This document shows positions 10,543-35,049 of a stretch of 35,049 bases of DNA, in pieces. The first letter of the stretch is position 1; every line of letters starts with the position of its first letter. The stretch is from an uncultured Muribaculaceae bacterium (GTDB lineage: Bacteria; Bacillota_I; Bacilli_A; RF39; UBA660): positions 1 to 35,049 of the forward strand of contig CAYJJY010000001.1 in NCBI GenBank assembly GCA_964370615.1, in the 5' to 3' direction. The notes beneath the pieces are model-generated. The model did not search any database. It worked only from the letters and a program-made list of their open reading frames with translations, and had not been told where the DNA came from. Made by a program: the position numbers and the translations under genes.

Positions 10543-11895
10543 CTAGAAATATATTTTTTTAGAAATAAAGTCTTTTAAATCTTCTATTTTTATAGTTTCT
10601 TGTTCTTTTGTATCTCTATGTCTTACAGTTACTGTATTATTATTTAATGTATCATCATCTACTGTAACACAAAATGGTGTTCCAATTATATCGTTACGGT
10701 GATATCTTTTTCCAATTGTTGCAGCTTCATCGTAAGTCACCATAAAGTCTTTAGCTAATAAATCATATAATTCACAAGCTTTATCGCTGTGATATTTCTT
10801 AATTAGTGGTAGTACTGCTACTTTGTAAGGCGCTAATACTGGATGAATTTTTAAAACATCTCTATCACTTTCTTTAGTATATGCATCAAATAAAATTGTT
10901 AAGATACTTCTATCTACGCCATAAGTACTTTCAATAATATATGGTACATATTTTTCATTTGTTTCAGGATCTAGATAATTCATTGAAACACCACTATATT
11001 CTTGATGTCTTTTTAAATCAAAATCTGTTCTATTATGTGTACCATTTATCTCATCAAATCCCCATGGAAATTTATATTGGATGTCACAAGCTGCTTTAGC
11101 GTAGTGCGCTAATTTATCATGATCTTTAAATCTTAAATTTTCTTCTTTAATTCCTAAATCTATATAAAATTGTTTTCCATATTGTTTATAATATTCATAG
11201 ATTTCAGTGTCTTGACCTTCTTTACAAAATGTTTGGTATTCCATTTGTTCAAATTCGATGGTTCTAAAAGTAAAGTTACCTGGTGTGATTTCATTTCTAA
11301 ATGCTTTACCAATTTGTCCAATACTAAATGGTAATTTAGTTCGACTTGTTCTTAAAACATTTAAATAGTTAACATATTCTCCTTGAGCATTTTCTGGACG
11401 TAAATAAATTTTCAATTTACTATCTTCTGTTACTCCACGATATGTTTCAAACATTAGTTTAAATTCTCTAATGTCAGTAAAATTACTTTTACCACATTTT
11501 GGACATTTAACTTTATTTTCATTAATGTAATCAATCATTTCTTGGTGTGTTAGAGAATCTGCTGTTTCTAATCCAACATCTTCTAATAGTTTATCTGCTC
11601 TATGTCTCATTTTGCATTCTTTACAATCAATTAATGGATCTGAAAAACTACTTACATGCCCTGATGCTTCCCAAACTTTTGGATGCATTAAAATACTTGG
11701 GTCTAATTCATAAGCATTTTTTCTTTCTTGAATAAATCTTTTGCGCCATGCGTCTTTTAAATTGTTTTTTAATCTTGCTCCTAATGGTCCGTAATCCCAT
11801 GTGTTAGCAAGTCCATCATATATTTCACTTCCTTGGTAAACAAATCCATATTGTTTACAAAAAGTTACCAATTCTTCCATTGTTATTTTTTCCAT
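10543..11895 (-). CDS. glyQS: glycine--tRNA ligase (single-chain GlyQS type)
   Basis: 450 aa with class II aaRS motifs: GFVYQGSEIYDGLANTWDYGPLG, FRNEITPGNFTFRTIEFEQME, and a C-terminal anticodon-binding domain. SD TAGGAGGT. Confidence 0.96.
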   Translation of the reverse strand: MEKITMEELVTFCKQYGFVYQGSEIYDGLANTWDYGPLGARLKNNLKDAWRKRFIQERKNAYELDPSILMHPKVWEASGHVSSFSDPLIDCKECKMRHRADKLLEDVGLETADSLTHQEMIDYINENKVKCPKCGKSNFTDIREFKLMFETYRGVTEDSKLKIYLRPENAQGEYVNYLNVLRTSRTKLPFSIGQIGKAFRNEITPGNFTFRTIEFEQMEYQTFCKEGQDTEIYEYYKQYGKQFYIDLGIKEENLRFKDHDKLAHYAKAACDIQYKFPWGFDEINGTHNRTDFDLKRHQEYSGVSMNYLDPETNEKYVPYIIESTYGVDRSILTILFDAYTKESDRDVLKIHPVLAPYKVAVLPLIKKYHSDKACELYDLLAKDFMVTYDEAATIGKRYHRNDIIGTPFCVTVDDDTLNNNTVTVRHRDTKEQETIKIEDLKDFISKKIYF

Positions 11896-15807: not shown

Positions 15808-16387
15808 AAATACCTCCTAAATAAATTGCTATTAAAACAATTAGTACGATTGTTATTATATTACAAATATAGCGTTTTTTCAAGAAAAATAGTTTGTCCA
15901 ATACTAAATAACTTAAATAACCTATTGTTCCACCAATAACGTTTAATAATATGTCATCGATATCAAAAACTCTACCTATTAATAATTGTGTTGTTTCAAT
16001 AGTTAAAGAGCTTAATAAAACCATTAATAATATGTATATATAATTTTTTATTTTCAAAAAATATGAGTAGTAAAATCCTAAGGGAACAAATAATAAAACA
16101 TTCCCTAGGACATTTCTAATAAAAGAACTACTTCCAAAATCATAGCGCGTAATTTCCTTAAATAAAACAAAATTATTTGTTGACCATGAAACATCTTGAA
16201 ATGTAACAATCTGAAATAAACAAATGCAATATATAATAAATGTCAAAATAATAAATTCTTTGTAAAAAATAAATTCTTTTTTATTTACTAAAATGTCATA
16301 TGCCTTGATTGTTATTACTATAACGCTACATATAAAAACTATTGGCCATGTACTTTCTATTATATCTATTACTATATCACGAATCAT
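15800..16387 (-). CDS. VanZ family membrane protein
   Basis: 195 aa, 5-6 TM segments; NVLLFVPLGFYY and ...DIDDILLNVIGGTIGY are typical VanZ-like segments. Confidence 0.75.
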   Translation of the reverse strand: MIRDIVIDIIESTWPIVFICSVIVITIKAYDILVNKKEFIFYKEFIILTFIIYCICLFQIVTFQDVSWSTNNFVLFKEITRYDFGSSSFIRNVLGNVLLFVPLGFYYSYFLKIKNYIYILLMVLLSSLTIETTQLLIGRVFDIDDILLNVIGGTIGYLSYLVLDKLFFLKKRYICNIITIVLIVLIAIYLGGIYV

Positions 16388-17531
16388 CTGTTACCTCCAT
16401 TATTGGTTGATATGCTGTTATATTCTCACATACTGCAAAAAATATTGTTAGTTTTACCCCTTTTTCATCCGTTGCTGTTTTTAATATTCTGGAAGAAATT
16501 ATATACTCCTCATCACTTAAATTACTAGAAATTTCATTTTCAGCTTTTATATAAGCTTTTTTTATAGTTTGTTCTAAGGTTAGAAATTGATTAATATTAA
16601 CTATTTCTATGTGCTTATCTTGGGAGATGGATAATGGTAAAATTTGATGTTCCCAAAGATAAATTTTTTCAGTTTTTTTATTTTGAAAAGTTTCTTTTGA
16701 ATAAAAATTATAGTTTAAAAAATTAAAAGTATATGTATTTATGAAATTGTTTGTTTCATAACTTTCACTATAGTAATATGGGTAATCAACATCTACAGTA
16801 TACCACACTTCGCCATAAACTTCACCTTCGGCTGGAATTGTATTTTTTATTTGATCGTTAAGATAAATATTTCCTGATATTACTACTTCACCTTTTTTCA
16901 CATAACTGTCGGTTGTTTTTAATTCTTCACCACTTTTGGTTATGATTTTCATTATAATAGCATCTTTGGCTGCTACTATATTTTGATTAGTTAATGGATT
17001 TATTTCTTCATTAATTGTTCTTTTTTCTACTCTAATGGTATAAGTTGTACCATTTTGAATAATTTCTAACCATTCAATTTTATCTTTATGATTATTTAGT
17101 ATTTCTTCTTTAATTATTTGTAATTCGGAAAAACTTTTTTTAGGATTATATATATCAATTTCATATTTTTTTAATTCTTCAATTAAGAAATTTCTTAACT
17201 CACTATCGCTATGAATTACTTCAACTTTAAATATTAAATTACTAAGATATAAAACTAAAATAATGCCTAAAACTATAAACAATGTTATAAATTTATGTTT
17301 GAAAATTTCTTTCCTAATTTTAATTATACCATAGATATTTTGTTCTGTAACTTCGTAAATAGTTTTTAATTCTAGTAATTGATGATAGTTTTTTTTATGA
17401 ATCAGTACTTCGTACTCGTTATAATTTAATCTTTTTAGCTTTAGTAAACTAATATTATTTTGATTTAATCTTTTTAAAAATCTTTCAATATTTTTTCCTT
17501 TTACATTTAAAAGTATCTTGCTTTCTAGCAT
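16377..17531 (-). CDS. yqfD: sporulation protein YqfD
   Basis: 384 aa with the YqfD architecture: an N-terminal cytoplasmic part, a single TM (FITLFIVLGIILVLYLSNLIF), then a large C-terminal domain. Immediately follows yqfC. Confidence 0.85.
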   Translation of the reverse strand: MLESKILLNVKGKNIERFLKRLNQNNISLLKLKRLNYNEYEVLIHKKNYHQLLELKTIYEVTEQNIYGIIKIRKEIFKHKFITLFIVLGIILVLYLSNLIFKVEVIHSDSELRNFLIEELKKYEIDIYNPKKSFSELQIIKEEILNNHKDKIEWLEIIQNGTTYTIRVEKRTINEEINPLTNQNIVAAKDAIIMKIITKSGEELKTTDSYVKKGEVVISGNIYLNDQIKNTIPAEGEVYGEVWYTVDVDYPYYYSESYETNNFINTYTFNFLNYNFYSKETFQNKKTEKIYLWEHQILPLSISQDKHIEIVNINQFLTLEQTIKKAYIKAENEISSNLSDEEYIISSRILKTATDEKGVKLTIFFAVCENITAYQPIMEVTDDS

Positions 17532-17535
17532 TTCA

Positions 17536-17775
17536 TCACCTAAATTCTATTTTTTCGATATTACCTTCTATTAAGATTTCTTTATCTAATAATTTTGAAA
17601 CTGATAGTTTTTTACCGGTTATAATCATGTGTTTATTAGGGATTAATAGATTTATTTTATTGTCATTTAAATCTAGTATTTCTAGATAATTTATTATGTT
17701 AATTTTATTGTTTTCATATATGGTTTTAAAGTTTTTTTCTAATATAAATTCATTGATTTGGTTTAAAAATTTCAT
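17536..17775 (-). CDS. yqfC: sporulation protein YqfC (YabP/YqfC family)
   Basis: 79 aa; ...MIITGKKLSVSKLLDKEILIEGNIEKIEF fits the YabP/YqfC pattern. SD TAGGTGAGAAG. Confidence 0.8.
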   Translation of the reverse strand: MKFLNQINEFILEKNFKTIYENNKINIINYLEILDLNDNKINLLIPNKHMIITGKKLSVSKLLDKEILIEGNIEKIEFR

Positions 17776-17848
17776 CTTCTCACCTATACTATTTTATGTT
17801 TTTTATAAGGGGGAAATGTATAAAAAAAAGATATCTTTGGTGAACAAA

Positions 17849-18070
17849 CTATTTTAGTGTTAAAAAAATGGTTTGAATCATCTCAAAGGTATCTAAAGCT
17901 TTACTTAATTTGTCACTGGTTTTTAGTTTATAATTTTTTTTCATTTCTTCTTCAAAACTTATAAATAAATTAGGGTCACGATTTAAATATTTATACCAGG
18001 TAGAGTTTTCTCTTAAATATTTTAAATAATTGGGATTTTTTTTTAATTTATATTGTAGTTCTAAGGTCAT
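17849..18070 (-). CDS. YlbE-like protein
   Basis: 73 aa; ...NPNYLKYLRENSTWYKYLNRDPNLFISFEEEMKKNYK fits the YlbE-like pattern. Start overlaps the ylbD-like stop. Confidence 0.65.
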   Translation of the reverse strand: MTLELQYKLKKNPNYLKYLRENSTWYKYLNRDPNLFISFEEEMKKNYKLKTSDKLSKALDTFEMIQTIFLTLK

Positions 18071-18432
18071 TAATCATCTAAATGTTTATATAGTGGTCGT
18101 GGTCGATATCCGGTTTCTTTGACTGGTTCTTCTTTACTTGAAAACCCTTCTACTACACCTAATATTTTTTGAATATTATTAACTCCGGATTGGACGTTGT
18201 CTAAATTTAAATTTTTAACCCAATTTAAAATGTCATTTACCCCTAATATTGTAGATGTTGCAGCTACTTCTTTTATTGGTGGTGTTAAATAATCTTTCCA
18301 AGTCGTTTCTTCTTCCCCGTATAAATCATACATTTCATAAAATTGTTGCCATGTTTTTTCATTGTTTTTAACATACTGTAACAATTTTGGATTTTTTTTA
18401 ACAAACTCTTTAAATAATTCTAACTTACCCAT
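18070..18432 (-). CDS. YlbD-like (putative coat protein) family protein
   Basis: FKEFVKKNPKLLQYVKNNEKTWQQFYEMYDLYGEEETTWKDY fits the YlbD-like pattern. The ATG at 18432 is preceded by TAGGTGAGAAGC; the track start at 18441 is a GTG inside the SD. Confidence 0.65.
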   Translation of the reverse strand: MGKLELFKEFVKKNPKLLQYVKNNEKTWQQFYEMYDLYGEEETTWKDYLTPPIKEVAATSTILGVNDILNWVKNLNLDNVQSGVNNIQKILGVVEGFSSKEEPVKETGYRPRPLYKHLDD

Positions 18433-18485
18433 GCTTCTCACCTATTTAATATTATGTAATTAATTTTAAAAAGTGAATATTTTAA

Positions 18486-20339
18486 TTATGGTTTTACTAT
18501 GAAATTAATATTGGCTGCTTTTTCACTTGAATTATTGAAGTTTAAAGCGTCTTGGGTTGTTTTAGCATAGGCTGTTGTGACTTTAGTTGTTTGGGTAAAC
18601 ATTTTTGAGAAATCATTTACTTTACTGGTATCAAAACTACTTAAATCGAGTGTTTCTAATCTTGTTGCATAATTAAACATTCTAGTCATCGTTGTGACGT
18701 TACTGGTATCGAATGATGTTAAAATGATATTTTTAGCTGCAGAACCTGAAAACATTACGGCCATACTTGTTACTTTACTAGTATTAAAATTACTTAAATC
18801 TAAATTTTCTAAACTGTACATGTACCCAAACATTTGAGTCATCGTTGTGACGTTGCTGGTATCAAAAGAGCTCACATCTATAGTTTTTATTTTTGACACA
18901 TTAGTAAACATATAATTCATGTTAGTTACATTTTTTGTGTTGAAGGATGTTAAATTTATATCTGTAAGACTAATTGTACTGGCAAACATATTAAGCATAC
19001 TTGTTACTTTACTGGTATTAAAATTACTTAAATCTAAAGTTGTTATAGATTGAACATTATTAAACATATTGGTCATATTAATAACATTTGATGTGTCTAT
19101 AGATGATAAATCCAGACTTAATAATTTACTGTTATTTTGAAATAAATATGACATATCGGTAACATTACTTGTATCTAAAGCATTGTTAAAGTTTATATTT
19201 TCTAAAGCGATAAATTTACAAAATAATGATTTGTATTGATTATTATAAGTTGTACAATACCCTCCTAATTTTTCATGAGCAATAATTTTTCCGTTTGATT
19301 CTATATTAAGAATTTGTCTTCCTTCTACTTCTTCAATGTAACCAACAACAACTTCATTATTATCTTCTGATAAATCCCATTTAATTGTAGCTGTTTCATA
19401 TTTACCACTTTTACTTGATAAAAAATTTATTTCTTTTATTGTATCACGATAAGTTCCAATTTTATTTTGAAATTCTTCACCACTTATCATTAAATTAGGT
19501 TCGGTAATTGTGATATTGATAGATTTTGTTACTTTTAAATTGTTGTTACCATTTGCTGTACATGTCACTTGATTTAATCCATCTTTTAATTCTATGGTAT
19601 TATTAAAATCACACAATAATTCACCACCACTTATTCCGAAAGAATATGTGAAAAATTCTTTTATTTCGTTGTTTGTATTTTTTAATAGTGTTATATTCAG
19701 TTCTTTTGCTTCTAAAACCGGTGTGGTTTTATCTAGTTTAAATTCTTGGCAAACAACTTCTGATTGTTTTCCGTAATTTTGCGCTACAGCACAAACGGTA
19801 TGGACACCTTCTTCTACTATTAAAATTTCACCTGTTTTATTGGGTATACATTCAGTGTTACTAACACAATATTGGTATGAATTTCCATTCGTAATTACAT
19901 TTACTTTTATATCTTCATTGTACCAATTAAAAGTATTACTAATTTCGATTGTTACTTTATAACTGTCATTATCATCATCCGGGTTACATTCTTCTTCATA
20001 CTTGAAATCATATTGGGAAATTTCGTTTTTCCAAGCATAAACTATACAACCTTCTAAAGTTTCATTGGTTAGAGGATTTTTGGGTATTTCATTAATGAAA
20101 CCATCATCTATTAATTCTTCAAATTCTATTGTCTTATAATTATTATTTTCATAACCTAAATTATTTTTTGTTGAAAAAAGGGTTGCTTGTTTGATTAATA
20201 TATTGATTTGTTCTTCATAAGCTACCTGCTTTGATTCATTTATAATACTGTTAACAATTGGGGTTGCTATAGCTAAAATTATACCTAAAATAACTAATAC
20301 TCCAAGTAATTCTACTAATGTGAATGCTTTTTTCATCAT
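18486..20339 (-). CDS. type IV prepilin-like N-terminus fused to Ig-like segments and about 9 DUF285 (BspA-type LRR) repeats
   Basis: MMKKA/FTLVELLGVLVILGIILAIATPIV is a class III (prepilin) signal with Glu at +5. The C-terminal half has ~25-aa repeats (LDLSNFNTSKVTSMLNMF, LTSFDTSNVTTMTRMF ...) typical of DUF285. Confidence 0.85.
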   Translation of the reverse strand: MMKKAFTLVELLGVLVILGIILAIATPIVNSIINESKQVAYEEQINILIKQATLFSTKNNLGYENNNYKTIEFEELIDDGFINEIPKNPLTNETLEGCIVYAWKNEISQYDFKYEEECNPDDDNDSYKVTIEISNTFNWYNEDIKVNVITNGNSYQYCVSNTECIPNKTGEILIVEEGVHTVCAVAQNYGKQSEVVCQEFKLDKTTPVLEAKELNITLLKNTNNEIKEFFTYSFGISGGELLCDFNNTIELKDGLNQVTCTANGNNNLKVTKSINITITEPNLMISGEEFQNKIGTYRDTIKEINFLSSKSGKYETATIKWDLSEDNNEVVVGYIEEVEGRQILNIESNGKIIAHEKLGGYCTTYNNQYKSLFCKFIALENINFNNALDTSNVTDMSYLFQNNSKLLSLDLSSIDTSNVINMTNMFNNVQSITTLDLSNFNTSKVTSMLNMFASTISLTDINLTSFNTKNVTNMNYMFTNVSKIKTIDVSSFDTSNVTTMTQMFGYMYSLENLDLSNFNTSKVTSMAVMFSGSAAKNIILTSFDTSNVTTMTRMFNYATRLETLDLSSFDTSKVNDFSKMFTQTTKVTTAYAKTTQDALNFNNSSEKAANINFIVKP

Positions 20340-20920: not shown

Positions 20921-22615
20921 TTACATCTTTGTTGGTATTTCTATTATTAATAGATTTAACATATCTTTGATTAATTGATTTGTATATTTTATTAATAATA
21001 GCCATTGTTGTTTTTTTGTTTCTTCTTGACCGATCATATGATTCGTTTGATAAAAACTATTACAATTTACTGATAAATCATAGATAAATTCAGCGATATG
21101 ATTCGGCATTTTTTCATTGAATGCTGAATTAATATATTTTTCAAATTGTAATAATTTGATTCGTAAATCTCGATCTACATCATTATATATTAAATTATTT
21201 AAATTTTCAATATCTATTTGTTCATTTTTTAAAATTTTATTCATTCTTAAATATGTATATAGTATGTATGGTCCTGTTTTACCAACGACATTTGAAAATT
21301 TTTCGATATCAAATATATAATCTTTCTCACGATTGTTTTGTAAATCAGCAAATTTTATAATAGCATTCATTATTTTATTAATGTCTTCTTCTTGCATGTC
21401 TTGATTTGATTCTTTTATACTTATAAATACTTCTTTTACTTGATTAAATAAATCATCTAATTTAAATGCTTCACCACTTCTTGTTTTAAATGGTTTTCCA
21501 TCGCTTCCATTTACAGTTCCGTAATCTAAGTGTTTTAAACCAATATTTTTGGTAATTCCCCATTTGTTACAGGCTCTAAATACTTGTTCGAAATGGAGTG
21601 ATTGTCTGTTATCAACTATATATAAGATATTATTTACATTAAATTGTGTTACACGTTCATAAATGGAACCCATATCAGTTGTTCCGTATAAATAGGCTCC
21701 GTTACTTTTTTGGAATAATAATGGTGGTATTTCTTTTTTATCTTCTTTTTCTTCAACTTCTATTACTAAAGCATTATTACTTTCTTTAAGAATGTTTTTA
21801 TCTAATAAATCTTTTTTTATTGTTTCTATATATTTATAAGAATCACTTTCACCTAACCATAAATCAAATTCTACACCTAGGAAGTCGTAAATTCTTTTTA
21901 TGTCTCCGATAGATACTTCACAAATTTTTTGCCAAATTTCATGATATTCTTTATTTCCTTCTTGTAAATCTTTAGTGATTTTCGCACATTTTTCTAAAAT
22001 AACTTCGTCTTCTTTACATAGTTTACTCATTTTAGGGTATGTTTTATCTAAGTATTCTAATGTTATTTCTTCTAATTTTAAATTATCACTTATAACTCCA
22101 TAAATTACTTGTCCAATTTGTAATCCATAATCACCTAAGTGAACATCACTTATTGTATTATGTCCCATAAATTTAATAATTCTTTTGATTGATTCACCTA
22201 TTATAGCTGTTCTTAAATGACCAACATGTAATGGTTTGGCTATATTAGGTCCACCATAATCTAAATAATATGTTTCTATATGTTCTGGTTTTTTTAGGTT
22301 GTAATTTTCACTATTAAACATTTTATTTATTTGATTATTTATGAATTCATCACTTAAAGTTATGTTGATGAAACCTGGTTTTACAAATTCTACTTTTGTA
22401 AAATAGTCATTAAAATTTTCTATTGTGTTGATGTTATTTACAATTTGTTCGCCAATTTCAATTGGTGATTTTTTGTAAATAGCTGCTAGTTTAAATATAT
22501 CATCACTTTGATAATCACATAAATCAGGTCGATTTGAAATAATTACTCGTGGGTTATATTCATATCCACTTTCTTTAAAGATATTTGCTAAGATATTTTG
22601 TAATAATTCAATCAT
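20921..22615 (-). CDS. argS: arginine--tRNA ligase
   Basis: 564 aa with the class I HIGH-type motif (PNIAKPLHVGHLRTAIIGESI) and a C-terminal DALR anticodon-binding region ending ...IIEIPTKM. Confidence 0.95.
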   Translation of the reverse strand: MIELLQNILANIFKESGYEYNPRVIISNRPDLCDYQSDDIFKLAAIYKKSPIEIGEQIVNNINTIENFNDYFTKVEFVKPGFINITLSDEFINNQINKMFNSENYNLKKPEHIETYYLDYGGPNIAKPLHVGHLRTAIIGESIKRIIKFMGHNTISDVHLGDYGLQIGQVIYGVISDNLKLEEITLEYLDKTYPKMSKLCKEDEVILEKCAKITKDLQEGNKEYHEIWQKICEVSIGDIKRIYDFLGVEFDLWLGESDSYKYIETIKKDLLDKNILKESNNALVIEVEEKEDKKEIPPLLFQKSNGAYLYGTTDMGSIYERVTQFNVNNILYIVDNRQSLHFEQVFRACNKWGITKNIGLKHLDYGTVNGSDGKPFKTRSGEAFKLDDLFNQVKEVFISIKESNQDMQEEDINKIMNAIIKFADLQNNREKDYIFDIEKFSNVVGKTGPYILYTYLRMNKILKNEQIDIENLNNLIYNDVDRDLRIKLLQFEKYINSAFNEKMPNHIAEFIYDLSVNCNSFYQTNHMIGQEETKKQQWLLLIKYTNQLIKDMLNLLIIEIPTKM

Positions 22616-22931
22616 TTATTTCCTCCAATGTATATTTTATTTTTTCGCCACCTAAAACTTTATATTCTATGTGGTAGTGGTTATTATTTATAATTTTATC
22701 AGTTTTTATTTCAATTGTAAATTTTTTATTTTCGATTTCACAAATATTTTTTGTTATAGTTTTTTCTTTGAATTTTAAATTTAATTTATATGTTTTATTT
22801 TTTCTTGTTATGATGTTTTTTTTTGTATCAACGACAACTATAAATTCTTGGTCTTTGTATGTATATATATTATCTTTTTTTATGGCTTTATAGGTGTTTT
22901 TTTTATCGTTTAAAGTTATTAAAATATTCAT
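22608..22931 (-). CDS. DUF1934 domain protein (YwiB-like)
   Basis: 107-aa beta-rich small protein overlapping the argS start by 8 nt. Same position as ywiB upstream of argS in Bacillus. Confidence 0.65.
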   Translation of the reverse strand: MNILITLNDKKNTYKAIKKDNIYTYKDQEFIVVVDTKKNIITRKNKTYKLNLKFKEKTITKNICEIENKKFTIEIKTDKIINNNHYHIEYKVLGGEKIKYTLEEIND

Positions 22932-22949
22932 GACATCACTTCCATAGGA

Positions 22950-22978
22950 ATTATAACATATAAGAGTTATAATATCAA
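22950..22978 (-). promoter_or_regulatory. sigma-A type promoter for DUF1934-argS
   Basis: Minus strand TTGATA, 17 nt, TATAAT. The 5' UTR is short, with no room for a T-box leader. Confidence 0.6.
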
Positions 22979-22979
22979 T

Positions 22980-23003
22980 AAAAAAAGAAGTATCTTACTT
23001 CTT
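22980..23003 (-). terminator. intrinsic terminator after the OapA-like gene
   Basis: Minus strand AAGAAGTA-AGA-TACTTCTT followed by a T-run. Overlaps the TAA stop. Confidence 0.7.
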
Positions 23004-23552
23004 CAGTGTTAATATATTGGAAAATGTATATAATATCTCATTACTTTTATTTATGGCAATTGATTTGCACATTGCTTTTCCACCGATTGTAAGTGCTGCT
23101 ATTATTGCTGTTACAATTAGTGTCACGATAAATAAATCGATATAAAATGTATTTGATATTGTGATTGAGATACTTATCCCAACGCTTCCTGATATAATCC
23201 CACAAACATCACCAATAACATCGTTACAAAATGATGCTACTCTATCGGCATTTTTTTTAAGTTTAACTGCCATTTTCGCCCCTCTTATTTTACGAGAACT
23301 CATTGAATGAAATGGTGCTTCATCTGCTGTTGTTACTGCTACTCCTACCATATCAAACATTATTCCAAATGATATAAACAGTATTAGTATTATTATAGCT
23401 ACAAAGAAGTTAACTTGCGGGATGAATGTTTCTGATAATCCTGATAGACAGAAACTTATTATGAAAGCTATGATTGTAACTTTAAATATCCAGTTAAAAT
23501 CTACTATTTTTTTTTCTTTTTTTTCGATTTGTTTTTTTATTTCTTTTTTCAT
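22995..23552 (-). CDS. oapA: small four-TM DUF21/CNNM-transmembrane-like protein; candidate OapA (OLE-associated protein A)
   Basis: 185 aa. After a basic N-terminus come 4 hydrophobic segments. Central ADEAPFHSMSSRKIRGAKMAVKLKKNADRVASFCNDVIGDVCG resembles the DUF21 core and contains DVIGD (DxxxD). Lies immediately downstream of the large ncRNA. SD AAGGAGAAAT. Confidence 0.55.
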   Translation of the reverse strand: MKKEIKKQIEKKEKKIVDFNWIFKVTIIAFIISFCLSGLSETFIPQVNFFVAIIILILFISFGIMFDMVGVAVTTADEAPFHSMSSRKIRGAKMAVKLKKNADRVASFCNDVIGDVCGIISGSVGISISITISNTFYIDLFIVTLIVTAIIAALTIGGKAMCKSIAINKSNEILYTFSNILTLKK

Positions 23553-23565
23553 ATTTCTCCTTAAT

Positions 23566-24172
23566 AAAAAAAGAGTTATAAACTCTGTAAATGGCTTTTA
23601 ATACAGTAAACTTTACGTCTTTAGGTCAAGTTGGATTTCCCTTGATTTAACTTACCGTTACCAGTAAAGCGGTTCCCCTTTAATAAATCAAATACGTTGT
23701 TACCAATCGTATGACTTGATTGCCACTTAGTACGCACTGCAATCCTATATTAAGCACTCTAGGAAATTTCTCCCCCGACTGTTTATTATTAATTCTTTTT
23801 TGCAAGATATGTTTCAATGAGCAATTCTAATTTAAGTTAGCTAAACTATAAATTATAAGATCTCATATTCCCATATTTCACGCAAGACAAGCTACACTAC
23901 TCGTAACTTTTCGCCACATAGTAGGTTTAATCCTAATTCGTCATTAATCCATCAACATGGTGTGTATAGGTTAATAACAAGTATAGGTCTCCGCAAGTAG
24001 TTGGGTCAATTGCGCATGCCATTGCGGTTGCCCAAAAACTCTTTCTTCCAGCACTCACCCTAAACTGGGCGTATAAAGCAAGCACAAGAAGCTTCACAGG
24101 TATGCTCTATTAATGGTGGTTTAATCCCATCTTCATAATAAACATTATCGACTAGAATAATGTGCCATTCCG
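23566..24172 (-). ncRNA. ole: large (~600 nt) structured non-coding RNA; best contextual fit OLE RNA (unverified)
   Basis: No ORF of 60 aa or more in any frame. GC about 37% by hand count, versus the mid-20s for the flanks. Own consensus promoter (24179-24207). 5' GAATGGC (24170-24164) pairs with 3' GCCATTT (23595-23589). A terminator hairpin lies at 23572-23586 plus a T-run. Ends are approximate. Confidence 0.6.
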
Positions 24173-24178
24173 TAAATA

Positions 24179-24207
24179 ATATTAACATATTTTTAAATTT
24201 ATGTCAA
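24179..24207 (-). promoter_or_regulatory. near-consensus sigma-A promoter driving the large ncRNA
   Basis: Minus strand TTGACA, 17 nt, TAATAT with a TG extension (aTGtTAATAT), directly after the upstream gene's terminator. Confidence 0.7.
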
Positions 24208-24219
24208 ATTTGAATATTT

Positions 24220-24240
24220 AAAAAAAGCAAATTATTTTGC
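24220..24240 (-). terminator. intrinsic terminator after the FMN-binding lipoprotein gene
   Basis: Minus strand GCAAA-ATAA-TTTGC followed by T7. Overlaps the stop codon. Confidence 0.6.
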
Positions 24241-24678
24241 TTCTTCTAATGCATTATTTAATGCTTCTACTAAAGATTCAATTTGAACTGTACATCCACT
24301 AATTGTATCTGTTTTTCCATTTTCATCTAAAGTAATAAAATCAATTCCTTGATTATCTATAACAGCTTGTTCTAATGCTTTTATTTGTTCATACCATTCC
24401 CAATCTGATTGACCATAATCTGAATTTCCAGTTTTCATTCCGTAAGAATCACCTAAAGCTTTTTTAGTTGTTACCTCACCTGTATAAGTTGTATAAGTTG
24501 TATCTAAATATACTGAAGTTATTTTTCCTTCACTATCAACTATAATTTCGGCTGTTGATGTATTTTCTTTTCCACCATAAGTGTCGATTGCCGTTCCTGT
24601 GAATGTTCCTTCTTTTAAATTGCTATTACATCCTGTAAAAATGAATGCACAAGCCACTAAAATTATTAATTTTTTCAT
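24232..24678 (-). CDS. FMN-binding domain lipoprotein (probable ApbE substrate)
   Basis: Lipobox LVACAFIFTG/C and FMN_bind-like fold. C-terminal DTISGCT matches the Dxx(S/T)G(A)(S/T) flavinylation motif, with Cys in place of Ala. Confidence 0.8.
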   Translation of the reverse strand: MKKLIILVACAFIFTGCNSNLKEGTFTGTAIDTYGGKENTSTAEIIVDSEGKITSVYLDTTYTTYTGEVTTKKALGDSYGMKTGNSDYGQSDWEWYEQIKALEQAVIDNQGIDFITLDENGKTDTISGCTVQIESLVEALNNALEEAK

Positions 24679-24710: not shown

Positions 24711-25211
24711 TTATTCATATAACAATTGCAAGTTTTCTTTAAAATAATTATTTAAATATTTACAAATTATTCCTGTAATTATACCAGATATAATGCTAAA
24801 AAATAAGATGAATGGTAAATAGTAACTTACATTAATTTGAGATATTAAAAAGATGGTTAGTATTTGACCAATACTATGACCAACTGCACCTATTATACTT
24901 ACACCTATTTCTGAAAATATTTTTTTGGCTATATACATTAATATTAAACTAATTATAACTCCTGTTAGACTCATAAAAAATGCTGTTGAAAATATACCTG
25001 TTCTTAAAATACCTACTAAGAAAACTCTTAAAACAGCTAAATAAATGGCATCTTTAAAAGAAAATTGATACAGTACAAATAAAGTGATTATGTTAGCTAA
25101 TCCTAGTCTTAATCCTGGTATTTGTCCTGAAAAAAATGGAATGCTTGCTTCTATAATATTTAGAACTATAGCTAGTGATAATAAAAGGGATAATCTGATA
25201 AATTTTTTCAT
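24711..25211 (-). CDS. Gx transporter family membrane protein (Hpre_diP_synt_I family)
   Basis: 166 aa, 5 TM segments; LAIVLNIIEASIPFFSGQIPGLRLGLANIITLFVL is characteristic of this family. Confidence 0.8.
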   Translation of the reverse strand: MKKFIRLSLLLSLAIVLNIIEASIPFFSGQIPGLRLGLANIITLFVLYQFSFKDAIYLAVLRVFLVGILRTGIFSTAFFMSLTGVIISLILMYIAKKIFSEIGVSIIGAVGHSIGQILTIFLISQINVSYYLPFILFFSIISGIITGIICKYLNNYFKENLQLLYE

Positions 25212-25564
25212 TAATGTACCTCGGTATCTATTTCATTTCCGCCAATTTCGATTAATATTTTATTGGGTAAACAAACTATTTGTTGATTGGATTTACTTAT
25301 AAATCCTTGATTGGAGCAGATGTTATAATTACTGGTTTCTTCTGTTACTCTTATCTGATTATTTAAAACTTCAAGAACTACTTTTCCATTAAAACCTTCT
25401 ACTTCATAAGTATTATTTATTTTTAAATCGATTTCTTTTATTAAAGTACTTTCATAATAAACATATGCTATATCAGCAGGTTGTTGGTTTAAATTAATAA
25501 ATAGTATTAATATTAAAATAATTACTAATAAAATTAGTATTAAAATAAAATCATTTTTCTTCAT
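25211..25564 (-). CDS. NusG domain II-containing membrane-anchored protein
   Basis: TM anchor followed by ...VEGFNGKVVLEVLNNQIRVTEETSNYNICSNQGFISKSNQQIVCLPNKILIEI (NusG_II pattern with conserved Cys). ATG at 25564; the track start at 25579 is GTG. Confidence 0.8.
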   Translation of the reverse strand: MKKNDFILILILLVIILILILFINLNQQPADIAYVYYESTLIKEIDLKINNTYEVEGFNGKVVLEVLNNQIRVTEETSNYNICSNQGFISKSNQQIVCLPNKILIEIGGNEIDTEVH

Positions 25565-26495
25565 AACTAAAATTCTCACTTGTAATTATTTGGTCTTGAT
25601 TAGTAAACCAAATAACTTCTACATCATAATTTGTGATAAAATCTTGCCCTTTTTCAATTGGCATTAAAAACAAGATTGTTGATAGTGCATCACATAAGCC
25701 ACTATCTTTACCTATTACGGTAACACTTTTCATATGATTAGCTGGGTATCTGGTTATTGGGTCTATAATATGGTGATATGATATTCCTTCATACTCATAA
25801 AATCTTTCGTAAGAACCACTTGTTACAACACTGATATTTTCATCTTTTATAACCATAAATGTTTCATCACTTATGGGACTTGCTATTCCAATATTGTAAT
25901 ATCCTTTTGCACTTTCTCCAACTATAACATTACCACCAGCATTTATTATAAATTCATTTATATCTAAATCATGTAATATTTCTTTAGCTTGGTTTGAGAC
26001 ATATCCTTTAGCTATAGCTCCTAAATCAATATTAACATTTCCTGATATTTCAATTTTATTATCTTCTATTTTAAAATTATCCATATTTATATCAATACTA
26101 TTTAATTCATAATTAGTTGGTAGTGATATTGTTTGGTTTCTAAAATCACTCCATATTTGTGTTAGATCACCGATATTTATATTTAGTAAACCTTCACTTG
26201 CATTAGACCATTCTAGTCCTTTATTAATCATTTCAATTAATTGTTCTGAAACATTGGTATTTCCATTGTTTAACTTATATAGTTCACTATTTTCATCATA
26301 CTTACTAACTATTAATTCGTAATCTTGATATAATTTTTCTATTTGTTCAAAGGCTTTTTCTGATTCTTTCTCACTAACATTATATAGTTTTATATTGATT
26401 AATGTATCCATATAAAATAAATTTGTTGAATAATCTTCTTTACTACATCCTGTTAATAATATAATTATTAAAACTAATATTTTTTTCATCTTCAT
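25551..26495 (-). CDS. apbE: FAD:protein FMN transferase (ApbE family) lipoprotein
   Basis: Lipobox LLTG/C. ApbE motifs: FYMDTLINIKLY, DLGAIAKGY, TSGSYERFYEYEGISYHHIIDPITRYP. Ends with TGA. Start placed at ATG 26495 or 26489; the track start is TTG. Confidence 0.9.
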   Translation of the reverse strand: MKMKKILVLIIILLTGCSKEDYSTNLFYMDTLINIKLYNVSEKESEKAFEQIEKLYQDYELIVSKYDENSELYKLNNGNTNVSEQLIEMINKGLEWSNASEGLLNINIGDLTQIWSDFRNQTISLPTNYELNSIDINMDNFKIEDNKIEISGNVNIDLGAIAKGYVSNQAKEILHDLDINEFIINAGGNVIVGESAKGYYNIGIASPISDETFMVIKDENISVVTSGSYERFYEYEGISYHHIIDPITRYPANHMKSVTVIGKDSGLCDALSTILFLMPIEKGQDFITNYDVEVIWFTNQDQIITSENFSYEEK

Positions 26496-26511
26496 CACTT
26501 TATAATTATAA

Positions 26512-26553
26512 CACAAAAAAAGATAAAAAGTTTCTTTTTGACTCTTTATCTTT
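26512..26553 (-). terminator. terminator-like hairpin immediately upstream of apbE
   Basis: Minus strand AAAGATAAAGAG-tcaaaaagaaa-CTTTTTATCTTT (12-bp stem, 1 mismatch) followed by TTTTTTGTG. Confidence 0.55.
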
Positions 26554-26768: not shown

Positions 26769-27821
26769 TTAGTTTGGAAGTTCATAATACTTATCTGCTG
26801 TTTCTATTGTACAATTCAAATCAGTATCACTATGAAATTTTATAGTTTTACAATAGAAATTAGAAACATCACAAGCGATATCATGAATACCATAAAATTG
26901 TTCATTAAAGAGCCATGAGAATGAATCATTAAATGGGCTTATAAGTTGATTATTATCTACATTTAAACAGCTATCTTTGATATAGATATCCATATTTTTC
27001 AATTCCATAACAACTGGAGCAAAAACCGAATCTCCTAAATTGCTATTAGTAGATAATGTTATCTTTTCTAGATTAGTACCTTCAAAAGCTGCATCTGCTA
27101 TTGTTGTTACACTATCAGGCATTTCGATTTCTGATAGTAAAGTATATGAAAAAGCATACAATCCAATTTCTTTAATGTTATTATTAATCTTAACACTTTC
27201 TATTACAAAACCATCTTCTTCATATCTTGCAAAAGCATATGAATTATTTGATGTAATATGATTTTCAATTTCTCCTACAGTTGATAAACCTATTTTATTA
27301 ACTTCAATACCACCAATAGTACATGGTATTACTGGACTTGTATCTGTTCCAATATAAGCTAAAATAGTATTGGTGTTTTTATCAAAAATAAAGTCACTAT
27401 CGGGATTAGCTTCATTTTTCCAACTGTCATAATTATCGCAACTATAAGCATAATCAAACTCTATTTCACAATTTTCAGAATATTCAAATTGATATTGATT
27501 AATATTATTTTGCCAAGAATACAGAATACATCCTTCCAAAGTTTCTCCTGTTATTGGGTTTTCAGGGATTGTTTGAATTAAACCTGAATTAATCAAGTCC
27601 TGATATTGAATTGATTTTTTGGTACTACTTGTACCTAATGAATTTTGTACTGAATATTTTAGAGCTTGATCTAGTAAAAGATCTATTTGCGAGTCGTAAG
27701 CTGATTGTTTTGAATTATTTATGATACTATTAGTTACTGGGACAATAATTGCAATTATAACACCTAAGATAACTATAACTGCTAGTAACTCTACTAATGT
27801 AAAGGCTTTTTTTACATTCAT
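26769..27821 (-). CDS. type IV prepilin-like N-terminus fused to a BspA/LRR_5-type leucine-rich repeat domain
   Basis: MNVKKA/FTLVELLAVIVILGVIIAIIVPV prepilin signal. The first ~120 aa are paralogous to the 18486-20339 product. The C-terminus has LRR_5-like repeats (IKEIGLYAFSYTLLSEIEMPDSVTTIADAAFEGTNLEKITL). ATG at 27821. Confidence 0.8.
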   Translation of the reverse strand: MNVKKAFTLVELLAVIVILGVIIAIIVPVTNSIINNSKQSAYDSQIDLLLDQALKYSVQNSLGTSSTKKSIQYQDLINSGLIQTIPENPITGETLEGCILYSWQNNINQYQFEYSENCEIEFDYAYSCDNYDSWKNEANPDSDFIFDKNTNTILAYIGTDTSPVIPCTIGGIEVNKIGLSTVGEIENHITSNNSYAFARYEEDGFVIESVKINNNIKEIGLYAFSYTLLSEIEMPDSVTTIADAAFEGTNLEKITLSTNSNLGDSVFAPVVMELKNMDIYIKDSCLNVDNNQLISPFNDSFSWLFNEQFYGIHDIACDVSNFYCKTIKFHSDTDLNCTIETADKYYELPN

Positions 27822-27846
27822 GATAACCACTTCTCTATCTTACAAT

Positions 27847-33414: not shown

Positions 33415-34455
33415 TTATAATGAATTGGTCAAATTATTTTTATCAAATTCATCATATAGGTCTCCTACTATTTCTTCTAAGATATCTTCCATTGTAACTA
33501 TACCTATATATTTATTATTTTCAGTTATTATTGCTATCTGACTTTTATTGTTTTTTAATACATTAAATGTTTCATATATAAATTTATTTGATTCTATATA
33601 TATTGGTGTTTTTATAATATTTTTTAGATTTATATCTTTATTATTTATATTTTTTATTATATCTTTTGAATGTAATATTCCTATAACTTTAGTTTTTTCT
33701 GTTATAGGGATTTTGTTATGAATTATTTTTTCTTTTATTAATATATTTAAAGCACTGCTTAAATCTGTATTTATATCTAGAGAAAAAGTATCTTTTTTTA
33801 ATGTCATAATATTTTTTATTTTTATATCATTTAGTTTTAAAACATTATGGATATAATCTCGTTCATATTTTTGTAATGTTTTAAATTCTAGTGCTTCATC
33901 CACTAGCATTTTTACTTCTTCTTCAGTTACAATTTCTTCATCTTGTTCATTAATACCAAATAGTTTAGATATAATATTAGTTATTTTAGTTAGTAAGAAT
34001 ACAAATGGTTTAAATATATTAGAAATTATTTTTAATATATTTATTGTTTTATATGCTATTGTTTCTCTATATTTCATTCCAATTCTTTTTGGTACTAGTT
34101 CTCCAAATATTAACATTAGAAATGATAGTATTATTGTTATTATAATAATTGTTATTATATTTAAAGTGTTGTAATCTATTTTAATTATTTTATGTAATAT
34201 TGGGGTTAGATTATCGGCAAATGTACTTGAGGCTATTGCACTTGATAAAAAGCCTACAAAGGTTATTCCTATTTGAATAGTTGCTAAAAATTTACTTGGT
34301 TGTTTGATCATTTCATTTATTTTTTTAGCTTTTTTATTTCCTTTCAAAGCAGCATTTTCAATTTTTAAATCATTTATTGTTATGAAAGACATTTCCATCA
34401 TTACAAAAAATGCGTTTAATAATATCAATATTATTAGTAGTATTATTTCAAACAT
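33415..34455 (-). CDS. CNNM (DUF21) plus CBS-pair protein (hemolysin/CorB family) without a CorC_HlyC domain
   Basis: DUF21 N-terminus (LLNAFFVMMEMSFITIN..., IQIGITFVGFLSSAIAS) and a CBS pair. Ends 8 aa after the conserved EEIVGDLYDEFD junction. Confidence 0.85.
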   Translation of the reverse strand: MFEIILLIILILLNAFFVMMEMSFITINDLKIENAALKGNKKAKKINEMIKQPSKFLATIQIGITFVGFLSSAIASSTFADNLTPILHKIIKIDYNTLNIITIIIITIILSFLMLIFGELVPKRIGMKYRETIAYKTINILKIISNIFKPFVFLLTKITNIISKLFGINEQDEEIVTEEEVKMLVDEALEFKTLQKYERDYIHNVLKLNDIKIKNIMTLKKDTFSLDINTDLSSALNILIKEKIIHNKIPITEKTKVIGILHSKDIIKNINNKDINLKNIIKTPIYIESNKFIYETFNVLKNNKSQIAIITENNKYIGIVTMEDILEEIVGDLYDEFDKNNLTNSL

Positions 34456-34516
34456 TTAATCATCTCCTATTATAATTATAACAGTTATTTAAATAAAAAA
34501 AAAGTTGAAGATCAAC

Positions 34517-35049
<533 letters not shown>

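Follow-up and report, generated by a model that had tools for sequence, protein, structure and literature searches.

The 35,049-nt stretch of DNA analyzed here (the window) almost certainly carries an ole-oapA cassette on its minus strand, in which oapA (for OLE-associated protein A) comes after a full-length OLE (ornate, large, extremophilic) RNA gene of ~580 to 600 nt, in the same orientation. OLE RNA has been known since 2006 and OapA since 2011, and the copy in the window is an ordinary, already described element. An earlier note on this DNA had proposed an OLE RNA/OapA pair as its leading claim, with a new large RNA as the fallback. The pair is borne out by a full-length, 355-bit Rfam match, by covariation of the RNA helices, and by the similarity of the downstream protein to OapA, including its DxxxD motif; the fallback is contradicted by the full-length match. 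All coordinates and sequences quoted in that note were correct on recheck.

Scanning the window against Rfam with cmscan placed RF01071 (OLE RNA) at 23575-24184 on the minus strand with 355.1 bits (E 5.9e-101), against a gathering score of 50 bits for this family. The match spans model positions 1-616 of 616 without truncation, and its 5' end takes in the -10 box of the promoter. No other family reached its own cut-off anywhere in the window, and this includes RNase P, tmRNA, 6S, SRP, ROOL, GOLLD, and raiA, which had been suggested as controls; OLE alone was matched, over its full length. The region had been singled out as free of open reading frames, and 23553-24231 (679 nt) is indeed the longest stretch of the window without an ORF of at least 60 aa. 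The next-longest such stretch, 34456-35049, arises only because the window stops there. The GC enrichment described for this region is also real: GC content is 35.7% within the RF01071 match versus 25.3% in the rest of the window, with 37.0% over 23581-24120 and 51.7% over 24001-24060. In the window RNA, 137 of the 150 retained RF01071 consensus pairs are standard pairs, and it has both the stem at Rfam model positions 198-253 and the one at 261-288. Unlike the Rfam model, the RNA lacks a small hairpin at approximately model positions 424-437, which is absent from all 69 relatives as well.

For the covariation analysis, we aligned 70 sequences, the window and 69 homologues from related species, with MAFFT (alignment A2, not fitted to structure). 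Under the Rfam structure, 88.4% of the cells in this alignment are paired, versus 38-45% when the partners are slid. Both sides changed in 117 of the 157 pairs, and none of 500 shuffles reached the observed values. The OLE consensus structure is kept by compensatory changes in this clade, the outcome that favors OLE in the covariation test proposed in the earlier note. The conserved core, bounded at its two ends by the arms of the closing helix, occupies 23589-24170 on the minus strand (582 nt; 550 to 594 nt in the clade), and ~190 alignment columns are invariant across the 70 species. The proposed helix joining the ends of the RNA exists and covaries. Its 5' arm, GAAUGGC (24164-24170, minus strand), and its 3' arm, GCCAUUU (23589-23595, minus strand), form helix 1 of the covariation analysis, with 84% of cells paired and both-side changes in five of seven pairs; GGC/GCC is replaced in the alignment by, for example, GGU/ACC, GGA/UCC, or GGGGA/UCCCC. 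The Rfam consensus itself shows the closing helix as unpaired.

The internal complementarities read from the sequence fared less evenly. UUGGG/CCCAA is part of a helix of the Rfam structure and is paired in 99% of cells. The interleaved, pseudoknot-like pairing of CCGCAA with UUGCGG is complementary in the window, yet it does not covary: among the 70 sequences no pair changed on both sides, and shuffles do as well. Bases of these two segments are used instead by a local hairpin, CGCA/UGCG, which is 100% paired and covaries. The decamer GGATTAAACC does occur twice, but the duplication is common only to the window and its closest species representative (L007), and the direct repeat is therefore not a conserved feature; we rejected it as a functional one. 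OapB binding requires a hairpin of the P13 type, bulged by one base and ending in a GNRA loop (PMC7936274). Such a hairpin is present in the window RNA as AUACG-A-UUG-GUAA-CAA-CGUAU, and GNRA loops cap both OapB-site hairpins in 69 of the 70 sequences.

These data bear on two other readings of the structured region. There is virtually no chance that it represents a large RNA of a new class with no relation to OLE: we found no point in favor of this idea, and it is contradicted by the score and full length of the OLE match, by the scores of 370-395 bits that the relatives tested reach on the same model, and by covariation that matches the OLE consensus structure. Alternatively, the copy might be a non-functional relic decaying in a shrinking genome. 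The host belongs to a low-GC lineage with relatives labelled Tenericutes or Mycoplasmatota, reduced gut clades are reported to have shortened OLE variants and no OapB or OapC (PMC11332333), and neither the window RNA nor any of the 69 relatives has the hairpin near model positions 424-437. Against this, every other helix is present with nearly all retained pairs standard, ~190 positions have stayed invariant over 70 species, and the RNA holds 36% GC in a genome of 25% GC. Its promoter is conserved, oapA is intact with an invariant DxxxD, and the compensatory changes show that selection on structure is ongoing. We consider decay extremely unlikely.

The upstream boundary of the unit is the terminator hairpin of an FMN_bind lipoprotein gene (24218-24249, minus strand), identified by folding. 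The segment 24205-24250 folds at -12.2 kcal/mol (z -4.05) and leads into a U-run; the upstream ORF (24232-24678) has a Pfam FMN_bind match. A sigma-70-type promoter follows at 24179-24207 on the minus strand (TTGACA, 17 nt, TG extension, TAATAT), scoring 10/12 plus TG in a consensus scan. A lone match of this kind means little, since the region holds 24 promoter-like sites where 11.3 are expected. However, in 66 of the 70 species an equivalent promoter (at least 10/12) precedes the closing helix by 8 to 20 nt, and the TG extension is present in 61 of the 70. Promoter spacing predicts an ole start at ~24171-24173.

Between ole and oapA lies a weak terminator-like hairpin, AGAGUU-UAU-AACUCU followed by six T (23566-23586, minus strand). 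The terminator placed by the earlier note at 23572-23586 exists as a hairpin and T-run, but it is weak: it folds at -3.9 kcal/mol (z -1.7), has two G-C pairs only, and gives way to another, dominant fold in a longer context. A hairpin and T-run are found at this junction in 36 of 69 relatives. The downstream boundary is a strong terminator hairpin over the oapA stop codon (22980-23004, minus strand); 22968-23020 folds at -10.2 kcal/mol (z -3.63), with none of 200 shuffles as stable, and a U-run follows. A consensus terminator scan of 22700-24500 reported none of these, because all three hairpins contain fewer than three G-C pairs, and we judged them by folding instead. The consensus scan also found no promoter-like site from the weak hairpin to the oapA start, so ole and oapA most likely share a promoter, with a leaky terminator between them. 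This suggests that ole and oapA are transcribed as a single unit, with a share of the transcripts terminating between them. The description of the RNA as autonomous in the earlier note is only partly right.

The same arrangement raises the question of whether the region acts only in cis on oapA, as a long structured 5' leader that always stays part of the mRNA and yields no separate RNA. The lack of a promoter-like site between hairpin and start codon and the weakness of the hairpin and T-run would both fit such a leader, as would the relatives, about half of the set, in which the hairpin is missing and oapA begins 20-60 nt after the RNA. However, eight of the 69 relatives have 400-1700 nt between the RNA gene and oapA, and in seven of these eight the RNA is immediately followed by its own hairpin and T-run, which implies that in those relatives the RNA is expressed independently of oapA. 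Moreover, OLE RNA of Halalkalibacterium halodurans is stable and abundant, binds OapA in trans, and is located at the membrane, and 580 nt with ~25 conserved helices and invariant loops go far beyond known cis leaders. A cis-acting leader is thus very unlikely, and a discrete OLE RNA remains the preferred reading.

The gene downstream of the RNA, at 22995-23552 on the minus strand, encodes a protein of 185 aa and starts 36 nt past the 3' arm of the closing helix, with a Shine-Dalgarno sequence, AAGGAG (23557-23562, minus strand), read 4 nt before its ATG. This protein is an OapA orthologue: it has four transmembrane (TM) helices, a CNNM-like fold, and a DxxxD motif, and it lacks CBS and CorC domains. 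Four TM segments, a DUF21-like core, and DVIGD had been noticed from the sequence alone, and each is supported here. A hydropathy scan gave four hydrophobic segments, and an AF2 model (pLDDT 84) placed helices at residues 19-46, 49-75, 102-136, and 140-168; the first ~18 residues form a lysine-rich tail for which the confidence of the model is low. The only Pfam match was to CNNM, at 24.3 bits against a cut-off of 28.4, and no NCBIfam model matched. The motif FCNDVIGD, which contains the DxxxD (D111-V-I-G-D115), is invariant in 25 homologues and also occurs in OapA of Clostridium acetobutylicum. BLASTP against the C. acetobutylicum protein gave 39% identity over 165 residues (E 1e-31); the latter sequence was taken from Supplementary Table 4 of a cryo-EM paper (PMC12286853) as a machine-read PDF from which a few letters may have been lost. 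Foldseek ranked MtCorB (7M1T/7M1U) and the CorC TM domain (7CFG) highest for the AF2 model. A PDB sequence search matched MtCorB alone (E 0.01) and found no OapA chain; MtCorB is likewise the reported top match of H. halodurans OapA (PMC11332333).

By published criteria (PMC11332333), the window protein resembles known OapA in its place after ole, its four TM helices, its DxxxD, its weak CNNM similarity without CBS or CorC, and its best structural match to MtCorB; we saw nothing notable that sets it apart. The traits that the earlier note gave for OapA, a weak CNNM/DUF21 relation and a distinctive DxxxD, are stated in the same paper, which names the absence of a conserved proline typical of CNNM domains as a further mark of OapA. 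The TM fold also resembles the CNNM domain of the Mg2+ exporters MpfA, CorB, and CorC. Unlike these, the 185-aa protein has no CBS pair or CorC_HlyC domain, its CNNM score falls below the Pfam cut-off, and it carries the DxxxD motif, which CNNM domains are reported to lack (PMC11332333). We rejected an MpfA/CorB identity, as the sub-threshold CNNM match is the sole Pfam match and the protein stops after the TM region.

Of 80 species loci from related genomes, 74 have an OLE homologue upstream of, and in the same orientation as, the oapA homologue, and in most of these 74 oapA follows directly. The conserved adjacency is limited to ole and oapA. The other neighbors in the window are the FMN_bind/Hpre_diP_synt_I/NusG_II/ApbE cluster upstream and orf107 and argS downstream, and none of the 80 related loci was found to have them beside its oapA homologue. 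We considered orf107 (107 aa, downstream of oapA; no match in Pfam or NCBIfam) as a new OLE partner and rejected it, since no homologue stands beside oapA in the 80 loci. A tblastn search with C. acetobutylicum OapC found no OapC in the window or the 80 loci; reduced gut lineages are reported to be without OapB and OapC alike (PMC11332333). A CNNM+CBS transporter gene (CNNM, 161.8 bits) is located 10 kb away, at 33415-34455. MpfA-type proteins reportedly anticorrelate with OLE (PMC11332333), and we count the proximity of this gene against our best explanation of the locus. Gut metagenome-assembled genomes provide the nearest relatives, under the labels Bacilli, Bacillota, Tenericutes, or Mycoplasmatota, and other genes of the window include sporulation-type yqfD and yabP and a rubrerythrin gene. 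These observations are consistent with an anaerobic gut Bacillota as host.

The window RNA is like the OLE RNAs of H. halodurans and C. acetobutylicum in its full model match, its covarying helices, its invariant blocks, and oapA directly downstream, and like studied OLE RNAs it keeps the bulged OapB-site hairpin with its GNRA loop. Unlike them, it is far more A+U rich, at 36% GC. In H. halodurans, ole lies within a long polycistronic housekeeping operon, whereas in the window it has its own strong promoter. Variant OLE RNAs have been described from TANB77 (variant 1) and from RF39 (variant 2) by Fernando and Breaker (2024; PMC11332333); variant 2 is reported to lack P7 and P8, and variant 1 often to lack the OapB site. 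The host appears to be of the same type as those of the variants, an uncultured, low-GC, host-associated gut Bacillota represented only by metagenomes (PMC11332333). In contrast to both variants, the window RNA is of the full-length type, with the stems at 198-253 and 261-288 and the OapB-site hairpin intact; we use Rfam model positions here, the mapping of published P numbers onto them being inferred. OLE in such gut lineages is already known: a 2024 survey of GTDB catalogued 2,846 OLE genes, some in uncultured, reduced gut lineages (PMC11332333). Our literature search found no paper combining OLE with Tenericutes, Mollicutes, or Mycoplasmatota; the statement on RF39 and TANB77 is in PMC11332333. 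The discovery value is therefore small, since any Rfam-based annotation would name this locus. Its descriptive value is modest: the locus documents a compact ole-oapA unit in a non-extremophilic gut lineage, where OLE is full length, very rich in A+U, and served by a conserved promoter of its own.

A membrane-localized OLE-OapA ribonucleoprotein and dimerization of the RNA are known in H. halodurans and C. acetobutylicum, and the functional steps of our model are transferred from these distant organisms. Transcription would begin near 24172, and most transcripts would end or be trimmed near 23566-23586 to give an abundant RNA. The read-through fraction would supply oapA translation and end at the 22980-23004 terminator, and partial termination would give a high RNA-to-mRNA ratio. 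What counts against this transcription model is the internal hairpin, which has only a marginal z of -1.7 and which about half of the relatives lack. By analogy with the studied systems (PMC12265935, PMC12286853, PMC11332333), OapA dimers would bind OLE and hold it at the cell membrane, and OLE would dimerize and recruit further proteins. The resulting particle would aid the cell in coping with stresses, among them cold, short-chain alcohols, poor carbon sources, and an excess of Mg2+, and OapA would probably act as a divalent-cation transporter or as the regulator of one.

It is conceivable, though we hold it to be somewhat improbable, that ole-oapA forms a self-contained, portable two-gene cassette in low-GC, Mollicutes-like gut Bacilli. 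Transcription of such a cassette would be driven by a strong extended -10 promoter of its own and end at a strong distal terminator, and a leaky terminator, present only in some cases, would determine how much RNA is made relative to OapA mRNA. The cassette would have no conserved neighbors, would possibly operate without OapB and OapC, and would coexist with a CNNM+CBS transporter. Small natural OLE systems may guide the choice of experimental models. If the proposal is true, the portable cassette would represent a minimal OLE particle uncoupled from the housekeeping operon of the model species, and this particle could be a simpler system for working out the role of OLE.

With a 60-aa minimum for ORFs, the longest ORF-free interval in the window is 23553-24231 (679 nt); the only other gap of similar length results from the sequence stopping at the window end. 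Its G+C content is 37.0% at 23581-24120 and 51.7% at 24001-24060, bearing out the description of a gene-free, GC-enriched region in the earlier note, whose quoted sequences and coordinates were all correct on rechecking. That note proposed either an OLE RNA/OapA pair or a new large RNA, to be examined with the OLE covariance model and several control families. We scanned the whole window, on both strands, with all 4,227 Rfam families. The single match, scoring 355.1 bits against a gathering score of 50 (E = 5.9e-101), was to the OLE RNA family, RF01071; it lies on the minus strand at 24184-23575 and spans all 616 model positions (1-616); RNase P, tmRNA, 6S, SRP, ROOL, GOLLD and raiA were all below threshold throughout the window. 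The G+C content of the match is 35.7%, compared to 25.3% in the remaining window. When the Rfam consensus structure was placed on the window sequence, 150 pairs were retained, 137 of them standard. The one sizeable departure from the model is that the window RNA lacks a small hairpin at approximately model positions 424-437, which is also missing in 69/69 relatives, where 3 to 9 nt remain at the site. The window copy is an OLE RNA of the full-length type.

The 185-aa ORF downstream (23552-22995) encodes OapA. The sole Pfam match, to CNNM, scored 24.3 bits, under the cutoff of 28.4, and NCBIfam gave no match for this protein. The top PDB sequence match was the archaeal CNNM protein MtCorB (7M1T/7M1U; E = 0.01), and a Foldseek search against the PDB also placed MtCorB first, followed by the CorC transmembrane domain (7CFG). 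The AlphaFold2 model (pLDDT, 84; pTM, 0.73) has four long helices, at residues 19-46, 49-75, 102-136 and 140-168, which coincide with four hydrophobic segments. Fernando and Breaker described OapA as a protein with four transmembrane helices and weak homology to the CNNM (DUF21) domain, with 7M1U as its top structural match and a distinctive DxxxD motif missing from CNNM domains (PMC11332333); the earlier note had given the CNNM/DUF21 relation and the motif accurately. In our protein, the FCNDVIGD motif (D111-x3-D115) is invariant among 25 homologues. Over 165 aligned residues, the protein is 39% identical (E = 1e-31) to Clostridium acetobutylicum OapA (sequence from Supplementary Table 4 of PMC12286853), and the match includes FCNDVIGD.

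The 185-aa protein has 4,980 relatives in the database, the closest being from gut metagenomes and metagenome-assembled genomes (MAGs) named "Bacilli bacterium." An alignment-based scan with one genome per GTDB species yielded 80 loci, nearly all from gut MAGs labelled Bacilli, Bacillota, Tenericutes, Mollicutes or Mycoplasmatota, Candidatus Fimihabitans among them. With the window RNA as an nhmmer query, 74 of the 80 loci had an OLE homologue upstream of the oapA homologue and in the same orientation; four tested relatives with a complete OLE scored 370 to 395 bits with the Rfam model. Four other loci (L001, L004, L025 and L073; ~8.5 kb each) clearly contain an oapA homologue (identity, up to 67%), and no OLE RNA was detected by nhmmer and Rfam within 4 kb upstream or elsewhere in the locus. 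In these species, either ole lies elsewhere in the genome or oapA exists without ole.

We aligned the window RNA with 69 full-length homologues using MAFFT (~190 invariant columns) and evaluated the Rfam structure together with the proposed helix joining the two ends of the RNA. Across the 70 sequences, the structure was 88.4% paired, compared to 38 to 45% when the 3' partners were slid by 1 to 3 columns. Changes on both sides occurred at 117 of 157 pairs, and none of 500 column shuffles attained any of the observed measures. The closing helix itself, GAAUGGC (24170-24164) with GCCAUUU (23595-23589), consists of bases left unpaired by the Rfam consensus; it is 84% paired with both-side changes in 5/7 pairs, with substitutions such as GGC/GCC to GGU/ACC, GGA/UCC or GGGGA/UCCCC. 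Of two interleaved internal pairings suggested from the sequence, UUGGG/CCCAA falls inside an Rfam-structure helix and is 99% paired. The other, CCGCAA/UUGCGG, was rejected: both-side changes were found at 0 pairs, and nearly all shuffles equalled it. The same bases form a local hairpin, CGCA/UGCG, that is 100% paired and covaries in 3/4 pairs. The duplication of the decamer GGATTAAACC is common only to the window and one related locus, L007; copy 2 overlaps a conserved motif, and copy 1 falls within a hairpin loop, which is different in most species.

The organization of the unit can be followed along the minus strand. The upstream FMN_bind lipoprotein gene ends in a strong terminator hairpin (-12.2 kcal/mol; z = -4.05). 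The near-consensus ole promoter reported earlier, TTGACA-17-TAATAT with a TG extension, is present at 24207-24179. A single match proves little, because a consensus scan of this A+T-rich DNA gave 24 promoter-like sites versus 11.3 expected. However, in 66/70 species a box with at least 10/12 matches precedes the closing helix by 8 to 20 nt, and the TG extension is present in 61/70; this conservation gives good support to a dedicated ole promoter. The Rfam match opens with UAAUAU, which coincides with the -10 box, and the RNA probably starts near 24172.

Downstream of the closing-helix 3' arm, the putative terminator at 23572-23586 does comprise a hairpin and a T-run, but the hairpin is weak (-3.9 kcal/mol; z = -1.7). 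Six T residues are followed by AAGGAG and, 4 nt on, by the oapA ATG; no promoter-like site was found in the 36-nt gap between the closing-helix 3' arm and this ATG. We note that, in a slightly longer context, another pairing is possible within 23557-23577: CUCUUU, made up of the hairpin's 3' arm and the first part of the U-run, is complementary to the Shine-Dalgarno sequence of oapA, AAGGAG, with a folding energy of -4.1 versus -3.9 kcal/mol for the weak hairpin (z = -0.08). This pairing could link formation of the RNA 3' end to the translation of oapA, or it could be fortuitous. A strong hairpin and U-run (-10.2 kcal/mol; z = -3.63) overlap the oapA stop codon, and a near-consensus promoter (22978-22950; 11/12 matches, with TG) precedes the next genes. 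Among the relatives, a hairpin and T-run directly follow the RNA in 36/69, and many of those lacking it reach oapA within 20 to 60 nt; in eight species, ole and oapA are 400 to 1,700 nt apart. An internal terminator is thus common without being required, and expression of the RNA alone is possible. In the window, the locus probably constitutes one transcription unit, running from the promoter through OLE, a leaky terminator and oapA to the final terminator, in which internal termination would let the RNA accumulate above oapA mRNA.

The conserved unit is ole-oapA and not a larger operon. None of orf107, argS, the rpoE-like gene, FMN_bind, Hpre_diP_synt_I, NusG_II, ApbE or RNase J adjoins oapA in the 80 loci, and in the closest relative (OapA 83% identical) the downstream genes are for glycosyltransferases. 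In H. halodurans, by contrast, ole lies within a polycistronic cluster of housekeeping genes. In the window, genes for an FMN_bind lipoprotein, an Hpre_diP_synt_I-family membrane protein, NusG_II and an ApbE flavin transferase (24711-26516) lie directly upstream of ole. The 107-aa ORF, orf107, without any Pfam or NCBIfam match (22608-22931, minus strand), has the 22978-22950 promoter ahead of it and overlaps the argS start by 8 nt. Two aminoacyl-tRNA synthetase genes, a class II enzyme (10543-11895) and argS (20921-22615), are present, and neither a T-box leader nor any Rfam element besides OLE was found in the whole window. Two genes, at 18486-20339 and 26769-27830, encode large proteins that combine a prepilin-type methylation motif at the N terminus with DUF285 or BspA-type LRR repeats; similar genes lie immediately downstream of oapA in six related loci (L004, L022, L025, L026, L054 and L055), which may reflect only the abundance of the family in these genomes. 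Sporulation-associated yqfD, yabP, ylbE and ylbD (16377-18441), in a genome of 25% GC, and nearest relatives labelled Tenericutes or Mycoplasmatota suggest a lineage between spore-forming Bacilli and Mollicutes.

What the particle does can be proposed by transfer from H. halodurans and C. acetobutylicum. By analogy, the OLE RNA would be bound by OapA dimers and kept at the membrane, and it would dimerize and bind further proteins; cells that lose the particle would be sensitive to cold, to raised Mg2+, to short-chain alcohols and to poor carbon sources. A role as a divalent-cation transporter related to MpfA/CorB is suspected for OapA. The features reported to determine OapB binding (PMC7936274), a GNRA tetraloop and a one-base bulge in a hairpin, are kept in the window RNA, and GNRA loops occur at both relevant hairpins in 69/70 sequences. 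No OapC homologue was found in the window or the flanks of the 80 loci.

The OLE family, its partner protein and their adjacency have long been known. A survey of GTDB R214 recorded 2,846 OLE genes, including variant forms in the uncultured, reduced gut clades TANB77 and RF39, which are said to largely lack OapB and OapC (PMC11332333); the window copy differs from these variants in being full-length. The gene at 33415-34455 (minus strand), 10 kb from ole-oapA, encodes a CorB/MpfA-like protein of 346 aa, in which a complete CNNM domain (161.8 bits) is combined with a CBS pair and no CorC_HlyC domain is present. MpfA-family proteins are reported to anticorrelate with OLE (PMC11332333), so their co-occurrence here is an exception or involves a different subfamily. 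This coexistence is mildly worth recording, as are the conserved dedicated promoter and the compact cassette organization of ole-oapA in this clade.
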